DNA from: a virus
Taxonomy: Duplodnaviria; Heunggongvirae; Uroviricota; Caudoviricetes
Strand: one strand, 5' to 3'
Length of the DNA stretch: 46,383 nucleotides
IMG/VR virus record: IMGVR_UViG_638341086_000015
Span: 1-46,383 of that record
Shown here: positions 18,912 through 34,253 of the stretch, piece by piece
Numbering within the stretch: the stretch's first letter is position 1
How the letters are laid out: every line of letters begins with the position of its first letter
Notes under the pieces: generated by a model
Databases searched by the model: none
What the model was told of the DNA's origin: nothing
The model's input: the letters and a program-made list of their open reading frames with translations, nothing else
Position numbers and translations under genes: made by a program

Positions 18912-20493
18912 GGGGTGTTGTCTCCTCTTCCGGCCTGCGACTCTCCGCTATCTGCTGCTGATACGCCTGCGCTATCCACACCGGACGTGAGAGTCCGGCT
19001 TTTTGCCGCTCTGCAGATTCCCTGACCTGCTGGCGGAAAATGTCCTGATAATCCTCGCCCATCAGCGCCAGCTCTTTCTCATACGTGCTCAGTCCGGCCT
19101 CAATGCGCATCACCGATTCCTGAACCTCCTTGAGCCCGTCAATGGCCATTCTTCCGGCACCAATCCACTCTGCCCGTGACCAGGCTGATCGCGCCTGATA
19201 AAAATCAAAACGCGCCCGTGGCGGACGGATAATCCCCCGAAGAAGTGCCTCTTCCAGCCAGCAGGAAAACATCTGCGTGGCCAGCCGGGCCGCAATAAAT
19301 TTTCGCCGCCCCATAAAATAGCGCCACGACTCATTGGCAGAGGCCCTGGCACTTGAATAACTGACCTTCGAGTAATCACGGGACAACTGTTCGTAGGAAA
19401 CGCCAAGACCGGCGGCGATATACCGCAGCAGCGCCTGTTCAAGCGCCGAAAATCCATTGTCTGAATCCTGCGCAGTCTGTAGTTTCAGATCATCCCCGGG
19501 GAAAAGGTGCGGAATTTTGACACCACCCAGCGTCACGTTATTCGTGTCATACCAGCTGGAGAACTTCTCCAGAATATTAATAAGCGGATTATCCTTCTGC
19601 CCCTGCGGCGCACCGGCGATATATTCAAAGGCCTTTTCGGTATCAAGGTCACTTTCAATCGTCGCTGCATACATGGCCTTCACAATGGCCGACTGAAGCT
19701 GTGTTGCCTGCAGGGAATCGAGCATCTTCAGCCGTTCCATGACGCTGTAAAACTGGTTGGCCCCACGGGTCTGCCCGTCCTCCACCGGCTCGAAAATATG
19801 CAGCATGGCCGGACGCCCGGTGGGAAGTTCACGCGGGATCCGTTCCCATCGTCCACTCCCGGAGCGAGGAAAATCATCCTCACAGATATGGTACGCAACG
19901 GCACGGCCATATCGATCGACCTCCACCCCGGCCCGCAGAAAACGGTTCCCCATACCGTGTCCTGGCGTGTCCACCCGTTTCGGACTCACGGCTTTAAAAC
20001 GCGTACGGAATAACTGCGTGGTTTCCGTATCCCAGACCGGCTGCACAAAGATTTCGCCGTTAAACGCATGAACGCCCACACCTTCACGGATAAATTCCGT
20101 GAACGTGCGTTTTCCTTCCACGTCGATCTCGCCAGACATCCCTTCGGCGTATTCCGACCAGGCCGCCTCCACCTCATCGACAAAGCTTTTTGCTGCGGTC
20201 TCCCGCATCCCCAGCCAGCGCCAGTTCGGACGGTAGCTGATAAGAAACATATGCCCGACAATGTGATCCTTATGCAGTGCCACCGCATTGGCCGCTATTC
20301 CGTTATTGCGCACCAGATCATCTGCCCGGGCATTCCCCAGACGCAACGCGGGCAGCAGGGCCGCATCGGCACTCTGCGCCGGTGGCAACCACTCCGCCAT
20401 TTGCCCGCCAAATCCTGCACCGCCCCCGTTGTAGCTGAGACTCTCACGAAGCGGAACGCCGTTCACATCAATCAGGACAGGCGTTCGTTTCAT
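18901..20493 (-). CDS. B: Portal protein B
   Basis: 530 aa lambda B-like. Confidence 0.9.
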   Translation of the reverse strand: MKRTPVLIDVNGVPLRESLSYNGGGAGFGGQMAEWLPPAQSADAALLPALRLGNARADDLVRNNGIAANAVALHKDHIVGHMFLISYRPNWRWLGMRETAAKSFVDEVEAAWSEYAEGMSGEIDVEGKRTFTEFIREGVGVHAFNGEIFVQPVWDTETTQLFRTRFKAVSPKRVDTPGHGMGNRFLRAGVEVDRYGRAVAYHICEDDFPRSGSGRWERIPRELPTGRPAMLHIFEPVEDGQTRGANQFYSVMERLKMLDSLQATQLQSAIVKAMYAATIESDLDTEKAFEYIAGAPQGQKDNPLINILEKFSSWYDTNNVTLGGVKIPHLFPGDDLKLQTAQDSDNGFSALEQALLRYIAAGLGVSYEQLSRDYSKVSYSSARASANESWRYFMGRRKFIAARLATQMFSCWLEEALLRGIIRPPRARFDFYQARSAWSRAEWIGAGRMAIDGLKEVQESVMRIEAGLSTYEKELALMGEDYQDIFRQQVRESAERQKAGLSRPVWIAQAYQQQIAESRRPEEETTPRET

Positions 20494-20696
20494 AACCTCA
20501 CTCCCAGCGGACGACGGCGACGCCGGGTTGTCCCCAGTACCGACTCCGCATCATTGATCGCCCGGTTAAGCTCATCCAGAGAAGCCGCCGTATATTCAAT
20601 TCTGCGACCATCTTTCTGGACAGACACCACCCGTTTACCGGTTAATAAATCAAGGCGCGCCTGACGCAGCGCCTGCAGTTCAGCGACTGTAACCAT
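20490..20696 (-). CDS. W: Head-tail joining protein W
   Basis: 68 aa lambda W-like. Confidence 0.85.
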   Translation of the reverse strand: MVTVAELQALRQARLDLLTGKRVVSVQKDGRRIEYTAASLDELNRAINDAESVLGTTRRRRRPLGVRL

Positions 20697-22608
20697 TCAC
20701 TCCTCCGGACAGCTTCGCTGCCAGTTCTTTCAGGGTTGGCCGGGTCGTCTCTTCTTCCCGGGATTTTGCCAGTACAGCCAGATCAAGCTGCCAGCGTTGC
20801 ACGGACACACGTAATGCCGCGTAGGCATACACCAGGCAGTCCAGCGCTTCGTTACGCCGCTTTTTGTTATCCCACAGCAGACGCATCTTTCCTTTTTCCC
20901 ACTTCTCCACCAGCTCTTCCGCCACCAGTTGCTGCGCCTCTGTCTGCGAAAAAATCTCCGGATCATCAGGAAAACGGATGGCATACGACGTGGCTTCATC
21001 CGCAGGCGTGGGATCGGCTTTCATACGGGCATAGAGAATTTCTTTTGCGGTGTCCGTCCCCACTTCACACAGATACACGCCCCGCTGATTGCGGGTTTTC
21101 GGCATGGTGATCACCGGCTTGCCATAGACAGACGCGCCTTTTACCGGCAGCACCCGGAAAACACCGTGTTTTTTTGATCTCTGATAAACAATTTCACCAT
21201 CGATCCCCCCGGTGTCCCAGCAGACACGGGAAATGGTCATTTCGGTGCCATCCGCATGGCGATATTTTTTGTTGATCGCAGCATCCACACGTAACAGCGT
21301 CTCTTCCTCATCGGGACGCCCCATAATGATGATTTTATCCACCAGAAAGGCTTCCTCTCCCGGTGCCCATCCCCAGACATACATCTCAAAACGGTTTCGC
21401 TGCGAGTCAATGCCCGCCGTCAGATAAACCACCCGGGAAGGCACCGCAGCCGTGTAACGCACAACCTTATCCATCAGTACCTGGTGATCGAGTTTTTCGC
21501 CCACGGCCTCTTCCCAGGTCTCGCCCAGCGTGGTGTTCACAAAGGTTTTCAGGCCGTTGGGATCTTTCAGTGCATCCAGCCAGTCATAGACAATCTGTAC
21601 CCAGGTGGTGAACGGACTGTACGCCGTCCAGATATGGAACGTGATGGAGCGCGGCGGCGGAATTTCATCACCCCGGGCGCTGAAAAACGTCAGACCGTCA
21701 CGGGTCCACATGCCCGTGTTTTCACAGATCCACCGCCCGTTGCTCTGGTCAAGCTCAGACTGATGGATCACGCAGCCATGATGTTCACAGAGGTAGAAAA
21801 CACTTTCAGGGCTGTCCTTCTCCCATTTAAGCCCAAAAGGCGTGGACTCATCGCCAAATTTCAGATACTGCGCCTCCCCACAGTGCGGGCAGGGCACATA
21901 AAAACGCATAAAATGCGCCGACTCGTTAGCGGCTTTTTCGATCTGGCAGGTGCCTTTGATTTTAGGCGTCGAGCCGCGAATGGATTTTGGCCACACCGAC
22001 CCCTCAATACGCTTATCCCCCAGCAGGGTTGGCGAGCCCTCTTTTTCGACATCCGGCTCGAACGAGGAAAGTTCGTCATAGCAGACCACGTCCACGGATT
22101 TTTCACGGTAGTTTTTGGCGGCAGCGCCGCCCAGGCACCAGAAACCGACGCCCGATGAAAAGCGTTTCAGCGTGAGAGTATTGTCACGATGTTTACGACC
22201 CAGCCATGGGGAAAGGTCTTTCAGGCATGGCACGTTCCGAATCGTCGCCTCCACGTGAGACTTCATAAAATCTTCAGCGGCAGAATCCGTGGGCTGAAAA
22301 AGCAGACTGTTTCGGGATTTATGCTCAATAAAATACCCGACCACCCCCAGCAACATCTTTGTATAGCCAACACGGGCAGATTTAATCAGGTTAACCGTGC
22401 GAACCTGGTCGTTACCCATACAGTTCATAATGGCGATCTGGAATGGCAGCGTTTTCCATTCGCCCTCACCGTATGAGGATTCTTTAGGCAGATAATAATT
22501 TTGATCAGCCCATTCAACTGCCGTCATTGGTACAACCCTGACCAGAGGCTGCAGCGCAACCGAAACGGCAGCCATCATATTATTCAGTTGTTGCTCTGAT
22601 ATATTCAT
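20680..22608 (-). CDS. A: Terminase large subunit A
   Basis: Colinear with lambda gpA from MNIS...; start placed at that ATG (22608) rather than the upstream track start. Confidence 0.9.
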   Translation of the reverse strand: MNISEQQLNNMMAAVSVALQPLVRVVPMTAVEWADQNYYLPKESSYGEGEWKTLPFQIAIMNCMGNDQVRTVNLIKSARVGYTKMLLGVVGYFIEHKSRNSLLFQPTDSAAEDFMKSHVEATIRNVPCLKDLSPWLGRKHRDNTLTLKRFSSGVGFWCLGGAAAKNYREKSVDVVCYDELSSFEPDVEKEGSPTLLGDKRIEGSVWPKSIRGSTPKIKGTCQIEKAANESAHFMRFYVPCPHCGEAQYLKFGDESTPFGLKWEKDSPESVFYLCEHHGCVIHQSELDQSNGRWICENTGMWTRDGLTFFSARGDEIPPPRSITFHIWTAYSPFTTWVQIVYDWLDALKDPNGLKTFVNTTLGETWEEAVGEKLDHQVLMDKVVRYTAAVPSRVVYLTAGIDSQRNRFEMYVWGWAPGEEAFLVDKIIIMGRPDEEETLLRVDAAINKKYRHADGTEMTISRVCWDTGGIDGEIVYQRSKKHGVFRVLPVKGASVYGKPVITMPKTRNQRGVYLCEVGTDTAKEILYARMKADPTPADEATSYAIRFPDDPEIFSQTEAQQLVAEELVEKWEKGKMRLLWDNKKRRNEALDCLVYAYAALRVSVQRWQLDLAVLAKSREEETTRPTLKELAAKLSGGVNGYSR

Positions 22609-23089
22609 CGAGTAAATCCGGTAATTTATCCCCTGCCCGCGCACACTGATTTGCCCCCTTAGCAATAAGGGTTTTCAGATGGTCAAGATGGCGCGGTGTT
22701 AAATCAGGAAACTGTCGCTGCATGGATAAAGGGATGGAATCAAGCGTACTGGATAACGCCATTGCCAGCTTACTGAGGGCAAAAATACAGAACCCGGTGT
22801 CAATAAGTTTTCCTTTTGACACCTCATTTTTTAACTGCTGTGTAACAGCCTGTTCTGCTGTCAGTTCCCATCTGGCAATAAGCAATTTCTCCTCATAGTC
22901 GTCTTCGCTATCGCCATCAGGCACATCGTTTTTACTTCTCCTCAGATACGATATGTAAAAATCGCGCCAGGCATCCAGATCCAGTTGCCCTCGCTTATTC
23001 GATATCGGGGCACCCGGCAATTTCTGCAATCTGCGAAGCTGGCGATCGGTCAGACTTAAATGCCTGGCAACTTCAGTCTGCGTAGCCAC
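22580..23089 (-). CDS. nu1: Terminase small subunit Nu1
   Basis: 169 aa; N-terminal HTH and C-terminal region resembling lambda Nu1; GTG start after GAGGTGAGGA; overlaps the A start as in lambda. Confidence 0.8.
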   Translation of the reverse strand: MATQTEVARHLSLTDRQLRRLQKLPGAPISNKRGQLDLDAWRDFYISYLRRSKNDVPDGDSEDDYEEKLLIARWELTAEQAVTQQLKNEVSKGKLIDTGFCIFALSKLAMALSSTLDSIPLSMQRQFPDLTPRHLDHLKTLIAKGANQCARAGDKLPDLLDEYIRATTE

Positions 23090-23272
23090 TCCTCACCTCG
23101 CAAAAACTCTCACCTCACAATCACAACAAAACCGGTCATGTCCGGTTTACATGTCTGTTTTTTGTTCATGTCCGGTTCACAGAAGACCTGTTTTTATATT
23201 TTTCATATAGTTAACTTGAAGAGAAACCGGACATGGATCCCGGAAAATTTTCATAAATAGCGAAAACCCGCG

Positions 23273-23284
23273 AGGTCGCCGCCC
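23273..23284. other. cos: cosN cohesive-end site (12-nt GGGCGGCGACCT on the - strand)
   Basis: Reverse complement of 23230-23300 reads ...GGTTACGGGGCGGCGACCTCGCGGGTTTTCGCTATTTATGAAAATTTTCCGG, matching the lambda cos region from memory; lies just upstream of Nu1. Confidence 0.8.
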
Positions 23285-23491
23285 CGTAACCTGTCGGATC
23301 GCCGGAAAGGACCCACGAAAATGATAATAATTATCATCTACATGAGGTTTATCACGACATGTGTGTACGCCATCAAACCACGAGAAATAATCAATTATTA
23401 CGCAGGTATCGTATTAATTGATCTGCATCAAATTAGCGTAAAAGCAACTTCAGATAATACAAATCAGCAACACTGAATACGGGGCAACATT

Positions 23492-23716
23492 ATGTCATCA
23501 AAGAACAGAACCCGCAGAACAACAACCCGCAACATCCGATTTCCAAACCAGATAATTGAACAAATTAACATCGCTCTTGACCTGAAAGGTTCAGGTAATT
23601 TTTCAGCGTGGGTTATTGAAGCCTGCAGAAGAAGATTAATTAATGAAAAACATGCTCAATTTGTACCCAACAAAGACAAACACGACCAGAGCACCTGTTC
23701 AGACAGGTTTACTTAA
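23492..23716 (+). CDS. Small basic protein, possible ribbon-helix-helix DNA-binding protein
   Basis: 74 aa; basic N-terminus then RNIRFPNQIIEQINIAL, resembling an RHH beta-strand/helix start; family not confirmed. Confidence 0.4.
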   Translation: MSSKNRTRRTTTRNIRFPNQIIEQINIALDLKGSGNFSAWVIEACRRRLINEKHAQFVPNKDKHDQSTCSDRFT

Positions 23717-23797
23717 ACGACTTATATATGACACAAAAAGCGACCACTAAAGTCGCTTTTTCTTATGGTAACAGGCAATAACTCTCTCAGATATTTT

Positions 23798-24112
23798 TTA
23801 GCATTTTTTTGACCGCGCGTTTCCGGACGTATTCTGTTCTCCTGTCCCTTTATATCGTCGGAATACCCGCCGCTCTTCAAATCCCATTCCCAACTCAGAA
23901 TGTAGTCTGTTGACCGCTTGTTTTATTTCGGTCAGGTTCACCGGTGAAACCGGAGTCCGGCGCGCCTTACGCAAACACTCTGCTCGTTTCTGTGCCGCCA
24001 CTTTTCTTTTCTGGTCATCACTTAGCTGTACCATCACTTTTGCCCATCGTTCAGCTGCTCTCCGGTACAGTCCTTTTTTCTCCAGACATTCTGCCACGTG
24101 ATCATGTAGCAT
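23798..24112 (-). CDS. pchC: PerC-like transcriptional activator (Pch family)
   Basis: 104 aa, MLHDHVAECLEKKGLYRRAAERWA...; recalled as PerC-homologue Pch sequence; GGAGG ribosome-binding site. Paralogue assignment (pchA/B/C) is by linkage to tccP only. Confidence 0.75.
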   Translation of the reverse strand: MLHDHVAECLEKKGLYRRAAERWAKVMVQLSDDQKRKVAAQKRAECLRKARRTPVSPVNLTEIKQAVNRLHSELGMGFEERRVFRRYKGTGEQNTSGNARSKKC

Positions 24113-24577
24113 AAGTGACCTCCGATTATCTACAGACTGCCATCCTGAATTTACCTTCCCTTAATGAAATAACAATAAAAAACAAACCACGCAAAAACAA
24201 TAAAACAACACACAAAAAAAACTAAATAATAAACAAAAATAATCACCTTATTTTATTATTTTTTGAGGGAGCAATTACTGAACAAAAAACGCTGACTATA
24301 TACTCAAAACCAAACAACTATTCTGCCAATCAGGTATCATGGCAACACACGGAATTACCGTGTTTTTGCCTTCTCTGCCCATACAATACGGGCATATACT
24401 TCATTCTCTATTGTAATATTTCTATCCATGTGCCCCACTCCATTTACCTGTAAATAATATTCAAAATATTTATCACAGAAATCGTTTTTGGCCATGAACT
24501 GAGCACACTATAAAGTCCGGAACTGACTCTTTGTTAAATTACCTTAACGTTACCAGTAACACCTTCATAACAAAACA

Positions 24578-25045
24578 TCACGGTATACACTGGGTACGGA
24601 TATATTCCTGTGCTCCTTCCAGTTGCTTCTGCATTGCCATCAGCCGTTCTCTGAGGATGAAATAATCCCGTTCAGCGGTGTCTGCCAGTCGGGGGCCGGT
24701 TGCATTATCCACGCCGGAGGTGCCGGTGGCTTCACGCACGGTACCGGAGCAGGTGGCGTTGATCCGCAGGCGCTTACGACCAGCGGCAACATCAGCACGC
24801 AGAGTTTCATTTTCAGCTCTCGCATCGGCTAATTCCCTCGAGTATCTGGCATCAAGTGCAGCGACATCACGCTGGCGTATCTGCATATCAGTAATTGTCG
24901 CGTTCGCCAGCTCCAGCTCACTGGCTTTTTTATCGCGCTGCTCTTTGTAGATGATGGCGTGATCACGGTAATGATTCAGCCCCAGACTAAGCGCACCACA
25001 GGCCACCAGCAGGACAATGATAACCACGCACAGAACACGGTTCAT
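24578..25045 (-). CDS. Rz: Spanin inner-membrane subunit Rz (i-spanin)
   Basis: Aligns with lambda Rz from MNRV... (NHYRD..AI.YK.QRDK, VDNA..PRLADTAERDYF..RERL). Start placed at ATG 25045. Confidence 0.85.
   Translation of the reverse strand: MNRVLCVVIIVLLVACGALSLGLNHYRDHAIIYKEQRDKKASELELANATITDMQIRQRDVAALDARYSRELADARAENETLRADVAAGRKRLRINATCSGTVREATGTSGVDNATGPRLADTAERDYFILRERLMAMQKQLEGAQEYIRTQCIP
24640..24825 (-). CDS. Rz1: Spanin outer-membrane lipoprotein Rz1 (o-spanin), embedded in Rz in the +1 frame
   Basis: 61-aa ORF inside Rz: MRELKMKLCVLMLPLVVSAC with lipobox and proline-rich body (CVKPPAPPAWIMQPAPDWQTPLNGIIS), like lambda Rz1. Confidence 0.8.
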   Translation of the reverse strand: MRELKMKLCVLMLPLVVSACGSTPPAPVPCVKPPAPPAWIMQPAPDWQTPLNGIISSSENG

Positions 25046-25046
25046 A

Positions 25047-25160
25047 TCACCACCAACGGATTGCCCAGACCAGAACAGCAATGGCCACAATACGAATGGC
25101 AAAAGCTGCCGCTCTTGTTAAATCCAGACTGGCTGGCGTCTCCACTTCAATGCCTTTCAT
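25047..25160 (-). CDS. Candidate 37-aa membrane peptide in the gap between R and Rz
   Basis: Not in the ORF track (under 60 aa). Read by eye: ATG about 25160, GAGG about 10 nt upstream, product MKGIEVETPASLDLTRAAAFAIRIVAIAVLVWAIRWW, stop TGA one base before the Rz ATG. Confidence 0.3.
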   Translation of the reverse strand: MKGIEVETPASLDLTRAAAFAIRIVAIAVLVWAIRWW

Positions 25161-25380
25161 AATGGACAACCTCAGAAAGAATCTTTTATACTTCCTCACA
25201 GGGAAAGTACCTCCCTACCCATAATTTCTCCCTTGCCTTACTCAAGGTCAGAAAACACAAAACCCCGCTTGCTGCCAACAAACGGGGTTTTTACTTTTAT
25301 TCACTTAGGTTTTACCAGTTTTCAGGATTTCGTGTTATCCACCCGCGTTGGCCAACGTCATTTTTCAGGAAAATATTCTG

Positions 25381-25914
25381 CTATCTGTCGATGTCCCAGC
25401 ACGCCAGCGCGCTCTCCTGGTCACGCCGTGAGACCTGACCGTAGCAATTATTTGAACGGATACGGCAGTCTCTGCCACCGTCCTTAATCCACCAGCGAAT
25501 CGCCTCACAGGCACCTTTTCGATCGCCTGCATTAATTCGTTTATAAAACGTCGACGGGAAGCACTTACCGGGGCCAATGTTGTACGGACAGAATGACGCG
25601 ATCCCCGCTTTCTGGGGTTCGGTCAGCGGCACCCGGATGTTTTTCTCCACCCATGCCAGCGCCTTGTCACGTTCGATGGCATTAACCCGGTCGCATTTTT
25701 CCTTTGACAGCTTCATGCCAGGAATAACAGGCTTACCATCCACCAGAATGGCACCACGGCAGATGGTCCAGATCCCCGCACCATCACGGTATGCCGTGGT
25801 GTGGTTACCTTCCTTTTCATCCAGAAACTGGTCGAGGATTTCAGGCGCAGAAGCACCTGCACCAATCAGCGCCAGAACGGCAGCCGACAGGCCGTATTTT
25901 ATTTTTTCGTTCAT
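25381..25914 (-). CDS. R: SAR endolysin R (T4-lysozyme-like, glycoside hydrolase family 24)
   Basis: 177 aa; weakly hydrophobic Gly/Ala-rich signal-anchor-release segment (YGLSAAVLALIGAGASA) followed by the E-x8-D-x5-T catalytic triad. Confidence 0.85.
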   Translation of the reverse strand: MNEKIKYGLSAAVLALIGAGASAPEILDQFLDEKEGNHTTAYRDGAGIWTICRGAILVDGKPVIPGMKLSKEKCDRVNAIERDKALAWVEKNIRVPLTEPQKAGIASFCPYNIGPGKCFPSTFYKRINAGDRKGACEAIRWWIKDGGRDCRIRSNNCYGQVSRRDQESALACWDIDR

Positions 25915-26031
25915 GGGGATTTATCGATTTCTAATCCCTTGATATGTTAGGTATATAATCAAACACTCATGGTCGCTCTCATAAACATATCCCTTGAGAC
26001 GCAGCAGATTACAACAAATGAAGCCATATAA

Positions 26032-26346
26032 ATGAACAGTAAAGAAAGTTTGCGCAGAAGATTTTTACAACTAATGACAGAAAACGTTAAATCAGAGTTA
26101 CTTCTTCTGATGGCAGATAATAACGAAGCAACAAGCAGCATTCTTGCAGACCCTTACGGTAAGATCTCACATAAAACGCTGGATATTATTACCACAACAT
26201 TAACACCGCTGATGCTTCAACGGCTGAAACATAATATCAACGCATGGGTTAATGAAGAATTAAGTCCTCCCTGTTTATGGGATTCTCGTTACGCATGTCA
26301 GCAAAAAATGCGAATTTTCAACTTACTATCACCAAAGCTCAGGTAG
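26032..26346 (+). CDS. Hypothetical 104-aa ORF in an AT-rich insert between holin and endolysin genes
   Basis: Only long ORF in the 690-bp gap 25915-26601; no obvious ribosome-binding site; opposite strand to the lysis genes. Confidence 0.3.
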   Translation: MNSKESLRRRFLQLMTENVKSELLLLMADNNEATSSILADPYGKISHKTLDIITTTLTPLMLQRLKHNINAWVNEELSPPCLWDSRYACQQKMRIFNLLSPKLR

Positions 26347-26601
26347 CCATAAAATCCTGCCCTTCATGGCATACAGGATTTCAATGGAATCACAATGACC
26401 AACTCTTGCACAGCTGTATCCCTGACTCCCCGACAACTCAGATTTTCAGTATCTGCTGCTATCTAAAGAGAAAGCGCACAAATGCAAGGGTCTTTCATCA
26501 CATCCTGTTATTGATTGCCTGTGACCTTTTCTTACCTCATGGAACGTTTTTTCAGTTAGAAATATTCATTTTACAACCAGTTCGTATTGTTTATTCATCG
26601 A

Positions 26602-26808
26602 CTACTCTCCCCGCGCCACCTTACGACGGTCCTCTCTGATTTTGAAATACAGGTTAGTCAGATACGTCAGCAGGCCAAACAGCAGACTTCCCAGCACACC
26701 TATTGCCACCCACTGGGACGGAGAGACTTTGTCCAGCAGCTGCAGTAACCAGTATCCCGTCCCCACCGCTGACGTGGTGTATGACACACCTGTTGTGATT
26801 TTTTCCAT
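26602..26808 (-). CDS. S: Holin S (phage 21 S21 pinholin-like)
   Basis: 68 aa: [62 protein letters not shown], two predicted transmembrane segments and basic C-terminus, matching recalled S21. Confidence 0.85.
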
Positions 26809-27064
26809 CTGATGTATGTCTCCGTCACCGCCGACAGAAAATGAAAGTAAAGAAAAACAAAAAAGCCGCCAGTGTCACCCACTGACGGCCAACTCCGGGA
26901 GCCGTGATTATGGCATTCAGGCTCTGCTAAAAATGCCAGATAACATTCCGGCCCCCCCCTGATTCAGGTTATAAATGACACAATATCTTGACAACACCCG
27001 TCACTGTCTGTCAGAAAATATACCGCCAGGCATAAGTATCATGTGAAATCCAACTATCCTTCTG

Positions 27065-27106
27065 AGCCAGCACCTCTCCACCGAAAGTCAGTGCTGGCTG
27101 TTTTTT
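27065..27106 (+). terminator. Rho-independent terminator-like hairpin on the + strand, antisense to the late operon
   Basis: GCCAGCAC ... GTGCTGGC followed by TGTTTTTTT. Confidence 0.45.
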
Positions 27107-27214
27107 TCCTTAATAAAGCATCTGTAACTGAAACAATCCGCATATTGATAATATATTGACAGGCATCATTGCTGTCTGTGAAAAATAAGTCTCTACAAAC
27201 ATATAAGGCCTTTT

Positions 27215-27258
27215 AGCCAGCGTCTTCTTTCAGGTCAGTCGCTGGCTCTTTTTTTATT
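27215..27258 (+). terminator. Second + strand rho-independent terminator-like hairpin
   Basis: AGCCAGCG ... CGCTGGCT followed by CTTTTTTTATT; overlaps the 3' end of the esterase gene. Confidence 0.45.
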
Positions 27259-29106
27259 ATGCTGCCGGTGCATTTATCTCCAGCACCAGACTTTCTATCT
27301 CAACGCCATACGCTGCATTTTTTGTAACATCCGTCAGCGTCAGCNCATTCAGTCCCAGTGTCAGACTGTCTTTTATNACCTGGAATGCCGGGCCAGCCAC
27401 TCCATTCAGTTTCGGAGTAACCGTGGCACTGCCGGCGGTGAACACCAGCTCCAGCGTCTGCCAGTCGTTACCGTAATCGCCGAACTCCCCCAGCTTCGTG
27501 TTTCCGGCTTTCCTGTGATGCATCAGATTCACTCTGCCGTCAGTGGTCTGAGTGAAGTACGACATCAGGAACGGATTACCGGTACCCGTCATCGCCACAC
27601 CATCAGGAACGGGAGCATCCGTATACAGATAAATCCCCAGCCCGAACTGATTGTTGGTCAGTGCGCCTGACAGGCGGAACTTACAGGTCAGTCTGCCGCC
27701 CTGTGTCAGCAGGGTAATTGCGTCATCCACCGGATGCGTCAGGGACCAGGTTTTATTGCTCTGCTTGGTGATCTTAAATACACCATCTGACAACTGAATT
27801 CCGCCATCCTTAATGCTCCAGCCCTGCGCAGCAGCCTCTCCGGCTGCCGGCAGCAGGGAGATTGTGCGAACGGACGTATCTGCAGACGGACCCGATGGCG
27901 TGTTGCCGCCGGGCGAGGGTTTGATTTCCGGTGCCTTACCACTGATGAAGGCGGAGGTGCGCCCGGCTGCGTTCAGAATAGCGGTTGCCAGACGATCCGG
28001 AATAATGCTCCTGCGCGCCCATGAACTGAAATGTGTCGGGCGGTTTGATGATACCTGGTTTCCATTCGTTCTCGATGCCGCACCGTAATATCCTGATGCC
28101 GGAATATCCGGATCTTCTGCCGGCGCGTTAGTGGCGGTATGACGCCGTTACCGTCTGTCATGAAGGGCACAAAATAAACGCCCTCACTCTCCCTGTTTTT
28201 ATACCCGCCGTACACGGTGTCGTACTGGGTAGCGTATGTATTTTTCCAGTAATACGTCGTGTCACCACAAATCCACGGCACATCTGCAGCACTGCCACCA
28301 TGGCACTGCGCGTTAAACACGGAGAGGTCAGCACGAAACTGTGTCAGCATGGCTGTAAACAGCGCAGGTTGCTGTGCGTGGGTGGCGGCGCTCATGTCAA
28401 ACTCTCCCTGCATCCAGCACACCGCCAGCAACACATTTTTCGGGTTCTTCTGTAATGCAGCTTTAGTGCGCGCAATCAGGTCCTGATATAACGGTTTACC
28501 CACACCCCAGCGTGCCGAATCCTGGCTGGCCCCCGTGTCCGCACTGAATGTCCCCTCAGCGCCCTGGGTGAATGCAGAACCACCACGACAGCATGGTACC
28601 AGCAGGATCCCCGCGTTATTCGGGATATACGGAAGCAGTTTTTTGGCAATATGTAAGCCCTGGCCGACACAGCCGTACTGCCCTTTGCTCAGGTCTGCCT
28701 TCGGATGATTCAGCGTACTCATATCCTGCACATCATGCAGGCAGTGGTCAGCCGGAATGATGTCGTTATACGTACAACTCTCTCCACCCGGAGTTACCGT
28801 GCTGCGGCGCGCCAGCTGTTTAATGCGCGGATCCGGAGCATCGTAAGAATCCGGTAACGGAAGCCCTTCACCGTAGGCCATGCCGTTGGACTGTCCGGCA
28901 AGCACAACCACGTAGAACCAGTCCGGCTCAGATGAAGGGCCGACCTGTGGCTCTCCTTCAATAGCCACCGCCTGCATCAGTGTGTACGGCGTAATGGCAA
29001 CCGGTCCGCCGTATGGCTGCCAGCCCTCTTTCAGTTTGTGTGTCAGCTTTTCCGCAAGGTCTGACGGCGACGCCGCCCTGACAACATCATAGTGTTTAAA
29101 TGCCAT
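27257..29106 (-). pseudogene. nanS-p: nanS-p-like sialate O-acetylesterase gene (DUF1737 N-terminus, SGNH/SASA esterase domain, C-terminal lectin-like domain), apparently frameshifted
   Basis: Three overlapping frames cover one ~616-codon span: ORF 27973-29106 (GQSN motif) runs into an Arg-rich out-of-frame tail after ...FMTDGNGV; a second frame continues from about 28130 through ORF 27257-27793 to the stop. Two n bases (about 27345, 27377) lie in the 3' part. Confidence 0.65.
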
Positions 29107-29551
29107 GAATCCTCCCGGCCGGGATAATATTGTGAGTAAAATGAGGAGCGGGCTGAAGTCCGGAAGTTACAGGACAATGGCAGAAGAGAGACAACAGCCC
29201 GCAATACGAAAAAGGCCGCGCTATTGCGCAGAGTGATTACTGTCGGATATTATTCGCCAGCTGAAATATTACTTCACGTTTTGTTGTTTATTCCTTGCCG
29301 CCCGCGTCTCCCTGCGCGGGCTTTTTTTGTCCATAAGAAAGCCCCTCCGGAGAGGGGCTGGAGAGTGGCGCTATGTGCCATTGCATGGTGCCGGGTGCCT
29401 CCCGGTGAATTCAGTACCAGCACCTGAATCCGCGATTATCCCATATACCTACTCGCTGATTGCCCCTCCGCACAGGGGGATTCACCATGCCAGTTTCTTT
29501 TAACAAACTCCCCGCAAACCAGACAACAGTCAACCGCCTGAATTGTGAGAC

Positions 29552-29585
29552 ATTTAAAAAAAAGGCCCGCAAAAGCGAGCCAGGG
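29552..29585 (-). terminator. Rho-independent terminator downstream of the tRNA cluster
   Basis: - strand GGCUCGC-UUUU-GCGGGCC hairpin followed by UUUUUUUU. Confidence 0.55.
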
Positions 29586-29595
29586 AAAATAAGTG

Positions 29596-29672
29596 TGGCG
29601 CGTTGTACTGGATTCGAACCAGTGACCGATTGCTTAGAAGGCAATTGCTCTGTCCGGCTGAGCTAACAACGC
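29596..29672 (-). tRNA. argO: tRNA-Arg (anticodon UCU)
   Basis: Manual cloverleaf on reverse complement: 7-bp acceptor stem GCGTTGT/ACAACGC, D-arm GCTC..GAGC, anticodon loop CTTCTAA, T-arm ACTGG-TTCGAAT-CCAGT, 3' CCA. Confidence 0.85.
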
Positions 29673-29685
29673 AGGATACAGATAA

Positions 29686-29762
29686 TGGACCGCCTTCGGG
29701 GACCCGAACTCCGCGCAACCAGCTTCGAAAGCTGGCGCTCTTTCCTGATGAGCTAATGGCGG
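29686..29762 (-). tRNA. argN: tRNA-Arg (anticodon UCG)
   Basis: Manual fold: anticodon stem CCAGC/GCTGG with loop TTTCGAA, 3' CCA; one mismatch each in acceptor and T stems. Confidence 0.65.
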
Positions 29763-29769
29763 TATGTGA

Positions 29770-29845
29770 TGGTGGCCCTTGCTGGATTTGAACCAGCGAC
29801 CTGGCGATTATGAGTCGCTCGCTCTCACCACTGAGCTAAAGGGCC
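29770..29845 (-). tRNA. ileZ: tRNA with CAU anticodon (Ile2/Met type, ileZ-like)
   Basis: Manual fold: acceptor GGCCCTT/AAGGGCC, D-arm GCTC-AGTGGTGA-GAGC, anticodon loop CTCATAA, T-arm GCTGG-TTCAAAT-CCAGC, 3' CCA. Confidence 0.8.
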
Positions 29846-29873
29846 GGGTCAAAAAATAATAATCAGATGAAAA

Positions 29874-30587
29874 TCAATAATCAAGCCCTTGCCTGGATAC
29901 ATATCTGTCTGGCGGGAAGCCATAATAGCGGTGAAATACAGAAATAAAGTAGGACCAGCTTGAATAACCGCATTTTTCTGCTACAGCCTGTCCATATCCA
30001 TGCCGGGAACATAACATATTCACAGCAACACGCATCCGCTCTTCCAGCAACAAGCGACTGAACATGTGCCCTTCATTTTTCAGTTTTATCTTTAACAAAC
30101 TCTCACTCATATGCAGGCGTAACGCAATCGCACCAAGCGTCCAGCTTGCTGATATATCTGTCTGAATTATCGCCCTGACTTTGGCACTTATACTGGATAA
30201 ACATCCACTTAAAAATAATAATATCCGTTCATCTGATTCAAACAGCGACAGGCATGCCATCATAAGAAACATATCCGTGGTATCTCCGGAAAATCTCTGG
30301 CTGGTAATTAAAGCCTCAGCCAACGCAGGGTTGTTGGGTTCCAGTGACAGATAAAGCGGAACGTCAGTCAGATGAGTTCTTGTCAGCTTATGCTGAATTT
30401 CCAGATATTGACTTACTATGGAATGGTTTATATCGAAAATTTTAACTTTGCCATAATGCATAAGGAAAAGCGCCCTGATGCATTTGGTGGCCAGAACGAC
30501 TGAGCCGGGCTTAAGTGACAACGTATCCTTTTCAAGAAAAATATTAATTGGGGAGCAAACCATGATAACTGAACAGACAACAACCAT
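29874..30587 (-). CDS. AraC/XylS-family transcriptional regulator (prophage-borne PatE/Psr-like regulator)
   Basis: 237 aa; C-terminal paired HTH typical of AraC family (…YGQAVAEKCGYSSWSYFISVFHRYYGFPP); AT-rich gene between Q and the tRNAs. Confidence 0.75.
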   Translation of the reverse strand: MVVVCSVIMVCSPINIFLEKDTLSLKPGSVVLATKCIRALFLMHYGKVKIFDINHSIVSQYLEIQHKLTRTHLTDVPLYLSLEPNNPALAEALITSQRFSGDTTDMFLMMACLSLFESDERILLFLSGCLSSISAKVRAIIQTDISASWTLGAIALRLHMSESLLKIKLKNEGHMFSRLLLEERMRVAVNMLCSRHGYGQAVAEKCGYSSWSYFISVFHRYYGFPPDRYVSRQGLDY

Positions 30588-30724
30588 TATAATTTTACTT
30601 TCATTAGCAATTGGTTAGTTCAATTATAGCCCCAAAAGGTAAATTATCATCAACACATAAGCAAAGGACTGACAGGTGCCGCTAACACCCACCAGCCGCC
30701 CATTTACCACAAATAAAAAAGCCT

Positions 30725-30922
30725 TCAGGACTGAAGGCGTCTGTAACAACCGCACTGATAGTCTGCCAGACCCGCCATAACAAGCTGGGTCAGTATTAAC
30801 TGGCAGCGTTCGCGTGAAAGGTAAGTATTCTGCGCAATCTCCCCGACTGTCGCCGGTTCGGTGACGCTTAATTCATCAAACACAACTCTGGCGGTTTCTG
30901 TCATATCCTGCTGTTTCAGCAT
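30725..30922 (-). CDS. Small 65-aa protein, possible winged-helix DNA-binding regulator (PapI/FaeA-like pattern)
   Basis: TVGEIAQNTYLSRERCQLILTQLVMAGLADYQ resembles small winged-helix regulators; weak call. Confidence 0.35.
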   Translation of the reverse strand: MLKQQDMTETARVVFDELSVTEPATVGEIAQNTYLSRERCQLILTQLVMAGLADYQCGCYRRLQS

Positions 30923-31043
30923 GTCTTTTTACCCTTTCCGGTTAACGTGACACACCAATAACTCTTGCCGAAAAAGCCAGCAAGCTGAAAGACCTGTATT
31001 AATAACTACCAGCACATTTAACGCACTGCGCTACTTTGCGGGC

Positions 31044-31068
31044 ACAAAAAACCCGCTCAGAGGCGGGG
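31044..31068 (-). terminator. Rho-independent terminator after the CPBP protease gene
   Basis: CCCGCCTCTGAGCGGG followed by TTTTTTGTG on the - strand. Confidence 0.55.
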
Positions 31069-31208
31069 TCAAGCTATGCGGCGAAATAACCACTCTTAAC
31101 AGCATACCTGATTTTTTACGTACGTAAATGCTTTGCCGTGCATATTTTTCATGCAAATGTCACGTCCTGCTATTTTTCAGTCTTATAAATTTAAAACCAT
31201 AGAAAAAA

Positions 31209-32027
31209 TCAATTATGTTTTAAAAATGGATAGGTAAAGAATAACAAGTGACACAGATTCAAACCAAAATGGAAAAGGGTGGCAACCCACAAACGCCCAC
31301 TCCACATCCATGACAATCCATACACAACACCAGATAACGTGGCAAATAATACAAGTAAAGCACCACCTGAATAGTGATAAAAACCAAACAACAAAGCCGC
31401 CACAATTAATGCAACCAATGGAGACGTTACTTCTGATAGCCGTGATTGAATATACCCTCTAAATAATGATTCCTCTGCCAGAGACACAAAAAACAAATTA
31501 GCCAATATAAACTCTGGCAACCACTCAGGAAAATGAATCTCTGGCTTTAATCCACCAAAAAAAACAGCCAAAAACAGGATAAGAGGAACAGAGAGCGACA
31601 GAGCCCCCCACTTCCACAAAGACACTTCTGATTTTACTTCTTTTTTAAACAAAGAAGATGTACACAGGACTAACAAAAATGGCACCAGCGCTTTATCAAA
31701 ATTAAAATACATTGTATAGGGAGTACTTTGAGGGCCAACAGTAACAGAATTTAGCACTACAGGATTGTGAAACCCTGGCCATAGATGGAAAGATAATGCT
31801 ATGGCTGATAAAACTATGCCAACTTCATATATAGATTTAGCCCAGGCGTTATATTTCCAGTTGAACTTCAAAATAATAAAAAAAACGATTGTAGCAACAA
31901 AAAATAACACCGACCAATCAATAATATCATTAAGCACAGCCAGGACAACAGACACCGTCAACAATGAAAAAGCCACTACCTTATGCCAACTGAGAGTTGA
32001 CAGTGACAGTACTAACACAATCCACAT
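31209..32027 (-). CDS. CPBP-family intramembrane metalloprotease (CAAX protease / Abi-domain protein)
   Basis: Polytopic membrane protein with the three CPBP motifs: EExxxR (LAEESLFRGYIQ), FxxxH (FGFYHYSGG), HxxxN (HFGLNL). Strong AAGGAG ribosome-binding site before ATG 32027. Low GC. Confidence 0.75.
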   Translation of the reverse strand: MWIVLVLSLSTLSWHKVVAFSLLTVSVVLAVLNDIIDWSVLFFVATIVFFIILKFNWKYNAWAKSIYEVGIVLSAIALSFHLWPGFHNPVVLNSVTVGPQSTPYTMYFNFDKALVPFLLVLCTSSLFKKEVKSEVSLWKWGALSLSVPLILFLAVFFGGLKPEIHFPEWLPEFILANLFFVSLAEESLFRGYIQSRLSEVTSPLVALIVAALLFGFYHYSGGALLVLFATLSGVVYGLSWMWSGRLWVATLFHFGLNLCHLLFFTYPFLKHN

Positions 32028-32178
32028 AAGCACTCCTTTTATTTAATGATGAAGATTGATTATCAATATTTTCAATTCACCAGGCAACATTTTATCTACC
32101 TTCCACAATACATGACCATCAAAAAATAAACATGTTAATTATAAACACAGAAAACATAACCCTCATCACTATATATCC

Positions 32179-32550
32179 CTACCGCATATCCATATCTAAC
32201 CGGACATTCAGAGCCATAAGCATTCCTTCAATAATACCTTCCGCTTTATAAAGCCTTTTACCAATAAGCCCATCAGAACATCTATGCTTACGTGCAAGAG
32301 CCATAAATGTCATTCCACCTACGTAATAATCCACCAACAAATCGTGCAAATACTGATTATTCTTGTTTAATCGTGCCATACAACCACAAATTATCATGGC
32401 GTCATCATCAGAACACTGAGGACGTGATTTCACTTTAGTCGGGATTAATCCTTTAAAACCAGCAGCTATCGAGGGCCATGTTACATCTTCATGATTATTT
32501 GCTGCCCATGCCCCCCATCGCTCAAGAACCATCTGGATATCACGCGCCAT
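32179..32550 (-). CDS. Q: Late-gene antiterminator Q (QuuD / phage 82-type)
   Basis: [25 protein letters not shown]..., near-identical to recalled DLP12 QuuD; AGGTGG before ATG 32550 (track start 32559 is GTG). Confidence 0.85.
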
Positions 32551-32911
32551 CGTTACCACCTCTGATTTCGTAAATCTTCACGCCCAGCCGTCCACCTGGC
32601 ACAGGCTGACCGCGCACAATATTGATTTCATCAAACTGCTCGTCATCAATGAGCACTTCCGCATGCGTCAGCGCATCCAGCGGTGCTTTCAGAATGTTGT
32701 CCAGGTCACGGCGGCGCTTATCCGGTGGTTCTGCAATAATTTTTATTGCCAGCCGTCCGGACAGGCTTAATTTCAGCCGCTGCTGGCGAACAATAAGCGC
32801 CACAGCCCGGCGATAACGCTCACCGGCTTTTGATACAAAATATGTGCTGCCACGACGTCGCCAGTAGGTGTTCACCGTCGGCGGGTAAGGCAAAACAAAC
32901 TCTATACGCAT
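32540..32911 (-). CDS. rusA: RusA-type Holliday junction resolvase
   Basis: 123 aa; PxxNxYW N-terminus, conserved DxDN ([10 protein letters not shown]), C-terminal GGRL. Confidence 0.85.
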
Positions 32912-32923
32912 CAGTAACCTCTT

Positions 32924-33973
32924 TTACCCGAGCACGCCGGTTGCAAAAGCGTGATCAAGAAAACGAAAAATTAAATCAACCTGGGAACCATGCTTTTCTT
33001 CGAACGCCAGCGGATCCGCATGAAGCTCGTTGTGATGCTCCCGACACAGCGGTAGCGTGAAAATATCGTGGGATTTTGTTCCCATTCCACCCTGACCATG
33101 ACCAATCAGATGATGAGGATCGTCCGCTGGCTTACCACAACACGCACACGGCTGTGTCTTTACCCAGCGTGTGTATTTCTCATTTACCCAGAGGCGACGT
33201 TTAGGTCGTTTCATGAAGGATTCCGGAGACTCCGGATCAACGGCAATGCTGACCACCGTCTTTTCCTGTGGTGGGTTCTGTTGCTGGTGGGTGTGAGGCG
33301 GTAGCGCAATATTTTTTGTGCGCTGCTTCAGTATGCTGGTGGCGGTCTGTTCTCCCGGTATGATGTCGCTTTCACGGTATACGGAGCGGATTTTTTCCGC
33401 CGGTAATCCCAGAGAACGACGCGATACTGCCTCAGGTAATGCGTCCACCACCTGATTGCAGACTGCCCACCAGGATAATTCAGCCAGCGATAATTCCCGT
33501 TCCTGTATGCCATTCATTGCGTGGCGGATGACGTCAATCATCCATGCTGACAGGTTTTGTTGAGCAAGTTGCTCAAGTGATTCGGATGTCTGGTCGCGCA
33601 GCTGGTTGTCGCAGTGCCAGCACAACACCATCGCGCCGGTACCGTAACGATGTATGACAGTTTCGCTGTGATGATAATCACCATGAGGCTACTGGCAGGA
33701 TTTAACGTGACGTAATAACCAGTCAGACAGTGCACCAGCGCCACCAGCAGCACGAATCACACGCTCATTGCTGAAAAATGGCAGTAATGATTTATCTTCC
33801 GCCAGCGGCTGGCGAACGGCAGGAACGACCCCGGACGGCAGATTACGCATGCTTTTCGGTTCAGACTCCACCAGCACCCTGCCGCCATGAAATACCCGCA
33901 TGGATTCACGGCCTGGCTTAACGATAACCAGACCGAGTTCCGGTACCAGAACAGGTCGAAGTAATACCCGCAC
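32924..33973 (-). pseudogene. ydfU-like (DUF968) gene interrupted by one in-frame amber (TAG) codon at about 33689-33691
   Basis: ORFs 33689-33973 and 32924-33631 are in the same frame, separated by a single TAG plus 19 sense codons; combined length 349 codons; C-terminal Cys/His-rich region (CACCGKP..HHLIGHGQGG..CREHHNELH). Confidence 0.55.
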
Positions 33974-33974
33974 A

Positions 33975-34253
33975 TTACCTCCAGATCCGTTGCTGGAATG
34001 TGCGGGACGGACGCGGTGGCCGTTCGGAGTAAGGGAGCCTGACGGAGATTATCCAGTGACGGTAGTCGAGGCTAAGGGCTTTTTTAACCTCGCATCCGCG
34101 CCTGCGGTAACACTGAATGAGCCATTCGGCCTGTTCTTCAGTGCATGGGGGATGCTGGTACCAGTCAGATTTGAATGCGTGAAAACACCGTCCGCGCCTG
34201 CTGGCAAAGACGGCAGAATCATCAGAATTGTATAATTTGGTATCGTGCGCCAT
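33975..34253 (-). CDS. Hypothetical nin-region protein (about 92 aa)
   Basis: Track ORF 33975-34334 starts at a non-ATG codon overlapping the hok terminator; start moved to internal ATG (MAHDTKLYN). Confidence 0.4.
   Translation of the reverse strand: MAHDTKLYNSDDSAVFASRRGRCFHAFKSDWYQHPPCTEEQAEWLIQCYRRRGCEVKKALSLDYRHWIISVRLPYSERPPRPSRTFQQRIWR

Follow-up and report, generated by a model that had tools for sequence, protein, structure and literature searches.

Within a 46,383-nucleotide stretch of viral DNA (the window; IMG/VR record IMGVR_UViG_638341086_000015), a lambdoid prophage whose late operon runs on the minus strand, we analysed two elements located on the plus strand of the 448-bp spacer between the sialate O-acetylesterase gene (the esterase gene) and the holin gene S. 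Our preferred reading, to which we give a probability of about 0.86, is that this interval carries a tandem pair of paralogous, self-contained small RNA (sRNA) genes of lambdoid prophages of the Shiga toxin (Stx) type, antisense to the late operon. Judged by its sequence, the first element (unit 1) is an allele of the PasA sRNA gene, and the second (unit 2) corresponds to the RNA detected as EcOnc51 and EcOnc52 and to the 3' end of the 236-nt form of PasA. A preliminary description of the window, made from its letters alone, had noticed both elements and had tentatively proposed that they were small non-coding transcription units. The observation is confirmed and its interpretation supported, for a feature that is already known under the names PasA/PasA-2, EcOnc51/52 and PasA long isoform. 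To the preliminary description we add that some of the transcription of unit 1 reads through into unit 2.

Identity of the two RNAs

The sRNAs PasA, PasB, PasC and PasD1/2 were defined in enteropathogenic Escherichia coli (EPEC) E2348/69 by RNA interaction by ligation and sequencing (RIL-seq) and northern blots with or without hfq (Pearl Mizrahi 2021, PMC8550237). In these blots PasA and PasC are RNAs of ~80-85 nt stabilised by Hfq (PMC8550237), and PasA, of 85 nt and Hfq-dependent, has 41 RIL-seq interactions in EPEC (PMC8550237 Tables S5/S6). Counted by its Hfq-mediated interactions it holds 12th place, and it is one of the best-connected regulators of the EPEC accessory genome; genes of type III secretion and of the bundle-forming pilus are among its partners. 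On the minus strand of NC_011601, PasA starts at 743499 and ends at 743415 (major form, 85 nt) or 743264 (minor form, 236 nt), in the orientation '> < >' between E2348C_0688 and E2348C_0689 (PMC8550237 Table S6).

Unit 1 aligns end to end with E2348/69 PasA (NC_011601 743499->743415), 74 of the 85 nt being identical; all 11 mismatches fall within nt 2-40 and nt 41-85 are identical. The published 5' end of PasA maps to position 27023 of the window, 30 nt after the -35 element of unit 1. The published seed GCCAGCACCU is found at 27066-27075, on the 5' arm of the terminator stem. Positions 27074-27098 agree exactly with the reverse complement of GCCAGCACTGACTTTCGGTGGAGAG, the northern probe used for PasA. 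The location agrees as well. The genes pasA and pasC have been placed between the sialic acid esterase gene and the holin-lysozyme operon, and the STnc100-related pasD across the esterase gene from them (Zhu, Shabalina & Storz 2026, bioRxiv 10.64898/2026.05.13.724894). The arrangement of the window matches this layout exactly, its plus-strand units lying between the SASA esterase gene and the class II holin/lysozyme genes and antisense to both. The window is 100% identical to Sakai prophage Sp12 across unit 1 and unit 2 alike. Unit 1 is probably the PasA-2 allele, a name that we deduce from the published description, the published alignment being an image; PasA-2 is the predominant PasA of O157:H7 (bioRxiv 10.64898/2026.05.13.724894).

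A comparison with the phage sRNAs of enterohaemorrhagic E. coli (EHEC), suggested in the preliminary description, was run and identified unit 2 in addition to unit 1. In E. coli O157:H7 Sakai, two Hfq peaks with a predicted terminator were obtained by crosslinking and analysis of cDNA (CRAC), EcOnc52 in Sp4 at 1181998-1182075(-) and EcOnc51 in Sp12 at 2237479-2237555(+) (Tree 2014, PMC4104026 Table S2). That study checked neither of them by northern blot or in an hfq deletion strain (PMC4104026). Both were later named as EHEC homologues of PasA (PMC8550237 Table S6), without assignment to the downstream unit.

The coordinates of Tree 2014 follow an older version of the Sakai genome, and their shift to NC_002695.2 (v2 minus v1) was calibrated prophage by prophage, with stx2A/AsxR, AgvB, EcOnc08 plus a probe, and EcOnc10-12 as anchors. 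The offset is 0 for Sp4, where a minus-strand terminator is found right at the 3' end of EcOnc08 and the probe maps between EcOnc08 and EcOnc21. For Sp5 it is +142, calculated from the start of stx2A and its coordinate in the old version. This value fits the position of AsxR, 282 bp 3' of stx2AB (Tree 2014, PMC4104026). Comparison of the Rfam match to AgvB with EcOnc01a gives +137 to +146 for Sp10, and the shared EcOnc10/11/12 RNA gives about +129 to +138 for Sp12. The EcOnc50 probe had no match in the Sp5 stretch examined. The shift between the two coordinate systems is thus 0 at 1.18 Mb, +142 at 1.27 Mb and ~+130 to +146 at 1.78-2.24 Mb, and the EcOnc candidates of Tree 2014 would mostly be misplaced if mapped uncorrected on the current RefSeq record of Sakai.

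Unit 2 is identical in the window, in Sp12 (v2 2237619-2237684) and in Sp4 (v2 1182074->1182009). Once calibrated, EcOnc52 occupies 1182075-1181998 of v2 in Sp4, and EcOnc51 occupies ~2237612-2237693 in Sp12, where unit 1 is found at 2237451-2237535. By these corrected coordinates both peaks lie on the unit 2 RNA. With the start of unit 2 predicted 30 nt after its -35, EcOnc52 has its 5' edge 1 nt upstream of this point, and both CRAC peaks have their 5' edge within a few nt of it; over the two units, 5' ends and peak edges fall 29-31 nt after the -35, as read from coverage rather than from primary-end mapping. An assignment of EcOnc51 to unit 1, which uncorrected NC_002695.2 coordinates would give, was dropped because Tree 2014 used the older version. 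In Sp4, IS629 replaces everything upstream of unit 2, so that unit 1 and its promoter are gone and the TTGACA of unit 2 is kept. Since an EcOnc52 peak is nevertheless present there, unit 2 is probably transcribed alone.

RIL-seq in EPEC also recovered the unit 2 region. Under the name pasA.E2348C_0688.IGR it has an RNA2 fraction of 1.0, being in every chimera the partner in the sRNA position, and 5 interactions, including one with escD of the locus of enterocyte effacement (PMC8550237), and the fragment involved in the escD interaction maps to the unit 2 terminator. The 236-nt PasA isoform aligns to the window at 27034-27258, through unit 2, and the second hairpin is thus the terminator of a published read-through species. 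Published work on identical or near-identical sequence has shown the existence, size and Hfq dependence of PasA, the binding of unit 2 to Hfq and the target chimeras.

Terminators, putative promoters and paralogy

As stated in the preliminary description, the two elements lie on the plus strand and are antisense to the late operon, whose genes Pfam identifies here on the minus strand. The two copies of TTGACA, a perfect -35 consensus, are 168 bp apart (about 170 bp had been given) and are separated from CTGTCTGT by 10 nt in both units, not by the 11 nt first reported. The bases that follow CTGTCTGT form an A-rich stretch, CAGAAAATA in unit 1 and GAAAAATA in unit 2; the string (C/G)A-AAAATA proposed for this position is one base off in unit 1. 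The combination TTGACA-N10-CTGTCTGT is found twice in the 46 kb, the expectation from 100 shuffles being 0.00, and the same numbers, 2 against 0.00 in shuffles, were obtained for AGCCAGC-N10-30-GCTGGCTNTTTTT. The region upstream of both promoters is AT-rich. As noted before, the -10 elements are weak: the candidates, CAGAAA/GAAAAT in unit 1 and GAAAAA/AAAAAT in unit 2, match at 3-4 of 6 positions. Each is preceded by TGT, which, within CTGTCTGT, could act as an extended -10 (TGn). The exact promoters and start sites given in Table 1 are predicted ones. A LexA box, a Fur box and a sigma-E promoter were considered as the source of the conserved CTGTCTGT and of an upstream GATAAT, and by eye none fits the consensus.

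Both units show the hairpin announced in the preliminary description, of the form AGCCAGC...GCTGGCT and then seven T. Folding of the hairpin modules gives -16.3 kcal/mol (z = -2.9) for unit 1 and -16.0 kcal/mol (z = -6.1) for unit 2, and the whole unit 2 RNA has z = -3.4. A generic scan returned only part of hairpin 2 because both loops are above its 8-nt limit. The negative outcome of the promoter and terminator scans was not counted against the units, the -10 and loop-size rules being behind the misses. No convincing open reading frame (ORF) exists in the interval, in agreement with the preliminary description, and the plus-strand ORFs 27043-27159 and 26816-26962 have no Pfam match. No further copy of either unit was found elsewhere in the window.

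Units 1 and 2 align with each other at z = 11.3 over shuffles, so that the similarity first noticed is real and was understated: on this alignment they are diverged tandem paralogues. The blocks kept between them are the -35, CTGTCTGT with the A-rich region, and the terminator, the remainder having diverged. From the conservation of the -35, CTGTCTGT and the A-rich region between paralogues we infer that the promoters are functional; in unit 1 these blocks are invariant in nearly all alleles.

To follow the alleles, 83 further loci were gathered by way of the C-terminal end of the esterase; IMG/VR supplied 80 of them and species-representative genomes the other 3, and the sample is biased toward close relatives. 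Alleles were counted over the 74 loci with a conserved esterase 3' end, taken from these loci, from loci fetched earlier and from the window. The tandem pair is present in 52 of the 74, including one E. albertii locus, phage 434 and prophage PP2 of E2348. A single unit of PasC type occurs in ~10 (6 more lie outside the 74 and have a variant esterase 3' end), and a single unit of PasA type in 3, flush with the esterase stop codon and with the stem AGCCAGUAC...GUACUGGCU. In a few loci unit 2 stands alone beside an insertion sequence (IS) element. Finally, the spacer is short (~170 bp) and free of units in ~10 more loci, which are of Stx2-phage and E. albertii type. The coexistence of two-, one- and zero-unit alleles at the same site is as expected of a mobile 'moron' cassette. 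Judging from its parts, PasC could be either a recombinant between both units or the ancestral single copy.

The terminator helix is conserved across 13 distinct alleles, in which 90% of cells are paired and 5 of the 11 stem pairs change on both sides (C-G/U-A, A-U/G-C and others). Its covariation score of 0.221, against 0.131 in shuffles, was reached by 0 of 500 shuffles and slid controls were far lower. The alleles also differ by insertions and deletions in T-runs and loops. The most variable spot among near-identical alleles is a poly-C tract at 26952-26959 (+), ~30 nt before the unit 1 -35, which reads C8 in the window and CC-TCCCC, CCAACCCC or CCACCCCC in other alleles.

Table 1. Coordinates of the two units and of the surrounding features in the window.
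Feature	Position	Strand	Details
Unit 1 promoter-like region	26988-27019	+	TTGACA 26988-26993; CTGTCTGT 27004-27011; A-rich -10 CAGAAA/GAAAAT 27012-27019
Unit 1 RNA, 85 nt	27023-27107	+	PasA family; hairpin 27065-27099, U7 tail 27101-27107
Hairpin 1	27065-27099	+	arms AGCCAGCAC 27065-27073 and GTGCUGGCU (also given as GTGCTGGCT) 27091-27099; then G and T7 27101-27107
Unit 2 promoter-like region	27156-27186	+	TTGACA 27156-27161; CTGTCTGT 27172-27179; A-rich -10 GAAAAAT 27180-27186
Unit 2 RNA, ~66 nt	27191-27256	+	hairpin 27215-27247, U7 27249-27255; ends at the esterase stop codon (TTA 27257-27259)
Hairpin 2, 5' arm	27215-27225	+	AGCCAGCGUCU (also given as AGCCAGCGTCT)
Hairpin 2, 3' arm	27237-27247	+	AGUCGCUGGCU (also given as AGTCGCTGGCT); then C and T7 27249-27255
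Read-through transcript, ~234 nt	27023-27256	+	spans both units; homologous to the minor 236-nt PasA isoform
Seed-complementary site GGUGCUGG	27280-27287	-	esterase 3' coding end; complementary to PasA seed core CCAGCACC
Late-strand intrinsic terminator	26864-26890	-	-20.5 kcal/mol, z = -5.3; 55 nt upstream of the S start codon
Antiterminator Q	32179-32559	-	upstream in late-strand order
CAAX-protease-like moron	31209-32033	-	late-region cargo between Q and the tRNAs
AraC-type moron (AraC-family regulator)	29874-30587	-	late-region cargo between Q and the tRNAs
Three tRNAs	29599-29845	-	5' of the STnc100 sRNA on the late strand
STnc100 sRNA	29329-29519	-	Rfam RF02076, 138 bits; just upstream of the esterase gene
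Sialate O-acetylesterase gene	27257-29106	-	DUF1737 + SASA + DUF6645 (Pfam)
Class II holin S	26602-26808	-	Pfam PF04971 (Phage_holin_2_1), E = 1.3e-32
Lysozyme (Phage_lysozyme), Rz, PerC homologue, terminase		-	after S in late-strand order
PerC-family activator moron	23798-24112	-	

Proposed mechanism and alternative explanations

In the mechanism that we propose, each unit would be transcribed from a sigma-70-type promoter of its own, in which the -35 is consensus and the weak, A-rich -10 is maybe helped by TGn, and would end in a Rho-independent terminator whose hairpin and U-tail would form an Hfq-binding module. Unit 1 would produce the 85-nt PasA-family sRNA, whose seed on the 5' arm of the terminator stem would pair in trans, with Hfq, to sites of the CUGNUGCUGG type in mRNAs of core and virulence genes; the mRNA of the adjacent esterase gene would be a further partner through its 3' end. 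Unit 2 would produce an Hfq-bound RNA of ~66-78 nt (EcOnc51/52) with a different stem and the seed GCCAGCGUCU. Part of the polymerases would pass terminator 1 and yield an RNA of ~234 nt carrying both modules. The independence of unit 2 and the targets in this strain are, like the start sites, predicted.

Several points weigh against this reading. The mature 5' end of PasA may stem from cleavage of a longer transcript (bioRxiv 10.64898/2026.05.13.724894), and the published 5' end derives from RNA-seq coverage, not from primary-end mapping. The expression evidence from northern blots, RIL-seq and CRAC comes from E2348/69 and Sakai, other than this exact strain. For unit 2 it consists of CRAC and RIL-seq, and the EPEC account treats unit 2 only as the tail of a PasA isoform; moreover, the Sp12 offset was estimated to ~10 nt and not read off the older Sakai version itself. 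Over its full 85 nt the unit 1 RNA has no exceptional stability (z = -0.5), which only its terminator module shows, and the generic sigma-70 scan, taken at face value, reported neither promoter, the -10 hexamers being poor. Finally, duplexes predicted by RNAduplex for units 1 and 2 with the esterase 3' end, and for E2348 unit 2 and PasA with the escD fragment, were not better than shuffles, which did at least as well in a fraction of 0.17-0.51. The program duplexfold was uninformative on long sequences here and was not used.

The main rival explanation is that PasA is the sole gene of the interval, unit 2 being a back-up terminator or a processed 3' fragment of the 236-nt RNA and the second TTGACA an inert relic of the duplication. 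Such a single gene would agree with the one start (743499) and two ends (85 and 236 nt) reported, with the treatment of pasA.E2348C_0688.IGR as a part of PasA (PMC8550237), and with the weak -10 of unit 2, for which the published evidence is CRAC and RIL-seq. It is weakened by the Sp4 locus, where EcOnc52 lies on unit 2 and IS629 removed unit 1 with its promoter, and by the CRAC peaks, whose 5' edges fall so close to the point expected from the unit 2 -35. The -35, CTGTCTGT and A-rich blocks are, moreover, kept between paralogues that have otherwise diverged, and unit 2 persists alone with its promoter beside various IS elements and on plasmids. We thus hold a single gene to be unlikely.

A different role for the units would be to act mainly in cis, antisense to the 3' untranslated region (UTR) of the esterase mRNA and to the esterase-to-S late transcript, either by damping leaky esterase and lysis expression in lysogens or, after induction, by being themselves sponged by the abundant late transcript. 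This would make sense of their antisense orientation, the esterase mRNA carrying ~390 nt complementary to the units, and of the late-strand RNA pasA.E2348C_0689.IGR (743494-743512 +) and the PasA-esterase chimeras seen by RIL-seq (PMC8550237). Since the late-strand terminator is only met beyond both units, an esterase mRNA that is not antiterminated would have a 3' UTR fully complementary to both sRNAs. The site GGUGCUGG listed in Table 1 is homologous to a RIL-seq target site of PasA, such sites reading CUGAUGCUGGA and CUGGUGCUGGA in E2348C_0688 and E2348C_1246 (PMC8550237 Table S7). Most RIL-seq partners of PasA are, however, mRNAs of core and virulence genes with a common motif complementary to its seed (PMC8550237), and the cassettes persist on plasmids and where IS elements disrupt the esterase/holin context. 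A predominantly cis-acting role is accordingly doubtful in our eyes. Cis and trans action are not mutually exclusive, and a cis-antisense component on the esterase 3' UTR is plausible from the complementarity; if true, action on this 3' UTR and on the late transcript would couple the induction of the prophage to riboregulation directed at the host. Nothing in this analysis pointed to PasA or unit 2 as a sponge of a core sRNA.

Two further explanations dispense with RNA genes of this kind altogether. If the hairpins were protective terminators against stray antisense transcription into the esterase gene and the TTGACA copies had arisen by chance, one would understand why the phage 434 record annotates terminators alone and why the generic promoter scan was negative. 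This is very improbable given the composite motif (2 matches for 0 expected) and is contradicted by published results from northern blots, RIL-seq and CRAC on the same or nearly the same sequence, namely the Hfq-dependent PasA seen with a probe that matches the window exactly and the Hfq-CRAC peaks on unit 2. That the interval encodes a small protein, for instance from the existing plus-strand ORF 27043-27159 (38 amino acids, GTG start), we regard as a negligible prospect: this ORF runs through terminator 1 and has no Pfam match, the alleles vary by T-run and loop indels, and in the literature the RNA acts as an Hfq-dependent sRNA.

The tandem pair of sRNA genes can be extended into a fuller proposal. 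Unit 2 would join PasA and PasC as a third family member, transcribed from a promoter of its own, with the seed GCCAGCGUCU and its own targets; the pasA locus would be a tandem like OmrA/B and PrrF1/2, the PasC and single-unit alleles would have arisen by unequal recombination, and both RNAs would also act in cis. Taken as a whole, this combination is tentative, and we put its chances slightly short of even.

Genomic context, distribution and known systems

On the minus strand, the late genes follow the order Q, morons, tRNAs, STnc100, esterase, S, lysozyme, Rz, PerC homologue and terminase, and no stx genes were found downstream of Q in the window. The esterase gene is bordered by sRNA genes on both sides, like that of E2348/69 PP2, and the STnc100 sRNA of the window is structurally related to PasD. 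Compared by alignment with the intact 1851-nt gene of E2348/69 and Sakai Sp12, the esterase ORF is broken into 27973-29106 and 27257-27793 by a 1-nt deletion near ~28140; the window contains several N bases, including 27345 and 27377, and the split gene is either a pseudogene or the result of a sequencing error. The late-strand terminator, which is annotated as such in the phage 434 record (OL657226), presumably insulates the lysis genes from non-antiterminated esterase transcription. Short alleles without units (for example loci L008 and L067) have another sequence and the same late-strand hairpin, with one G-C to A-T swap. A second plus-strand promoter-like site, TAAACA-18-TATTAT, was noticed at 24230-24259 in the Rz-PerC spacer; it too runs against the late operon, and a terminator-like hairpin with TTTTT comes after it at 24347-24363 (+). 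The whole element (24230-24363) has no Rfam match and is not homologous to the Sakai EcOnc10-12 RNA at the corresponding position.

Of 5426 complete E. coli genomes, 678 (~12%) carry unit 1, at 2189 places, and 676 carry unit 2, at 2297 places, of which 100 are on plasmids. The locus is also carried by phages 434, H-19B and YYZ-2008 and by Stx1a phages. Scanning species-representative genomes returned only 3 loci, in E. albertii and one further Escherichia species, and the family appears to be confined to Escherichia. On virulence plasmids of ~94 kb, unit 2 was observed alone with its -35 and an 87-nt esterase remnant, beside uilS and IS600; in one example (L007 2501-2651; NZ_AP027164.1, pO26_EH031_2) the stem is partly degraded, with one G-U pair and one A-C mismatch.

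The units are thus multicopy in about one eighth of complete E. coli genomes, almost all of pathogenic lineages, and unannotated in genome records: among the records listed, none has a feature over unit 1, and at unit 2 the sole entry is the esterase gene that borders it. In the phage 434 record these two plus-strand hairpins figure as terminators, with three terminators in all and nothing more. The window gains a correct annotation with two sRNA genes, which are labelled as such in no annotated record examined. The tandem pair also affects copy-number and allele counts in comparative studies, and it suggests unit 2 as a candidate for a specific second regulator.

Other prophage sRNAs were compared with the interval. 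AgvB and AsxR (RF02702, RF02703) are likewise short, Hfq-bound, prophage-encoded, antisense to the late operon and downstream of PR', and differ in location: they are found past the opposite end of the esterase gene, between its 5' end and the moron/stx genes. Their Rfam models had no match in 26800-27350 (E <= 10) or in 20000-34000 (E <= 1), the AgvB model scoring 96.5 bits on the true AgvB locus as a positive control. STnc100/PasD (RF02076) has no match in the interval, only the one at 29329-29519 (-). More generally, scanning with Rfam over the interval and its 14-kb surroundings returned no family for either unit. PasA and PasC being absent from Rfam 15, this null result is no evidence against them, and AgvB, AsxR and STnc100 are excluded.

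Among the closest known systems is PasA of EPEC E2348/69 PP2, which shares with the window the locus (esterase < sRNA > holin, antisense to both genes), the length of 85 nt, the promoter region, the seed GCCAGCACCU, the terminator, the U-tail and nt 41-85, together with the downstream unit 2 and the read-through architecture. The RNA of the window differs from it by the 11 substitutions within nt 2-40. PasC, from PP5 of the same strain, combines a promoter and 5' body of unit 1 type with a stem of unit 2 type (AGCCAGCG...CGCUGGCU) and, like unit 2, lies flush with the esterase stop codon; it differs as a single-unit allele of 78 nt with its own loop. No unit of PasC type is present in the window, in which the PasC probe has no match.

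The layout recalls the adjacent paralogous sRNAs OmrA/OmrB of E. coli and PrrF1/PrrF2 of Pseudomonas, which have their own promoters and terminators, conserved 3' modules and diverged 5' parts, and of which the latter pair is spanned by the read-through RNA PrrH. By analogy, the transcript over both units of the window would resemble PrrH. There is no sequence relationship with these pairs, and the pair of the window differs in being prophage-borne and antisense to a late operon. The Pas sRNAs have been contrasted with such tandem pairs, their copies being said not to be tandem (bioRxiv 10.64898/2026.05.13.724894), a statement made without counting unit 2. Beyond the published accounts of PasA and EcOnc51/52, our comparisons place EcOnc51/52 on the downstream unit and identify the pasA locus as a diverged tandem duplication, with PasC as an apparent one-unit hybrid, which is a refinement of the known system and not a discovery.

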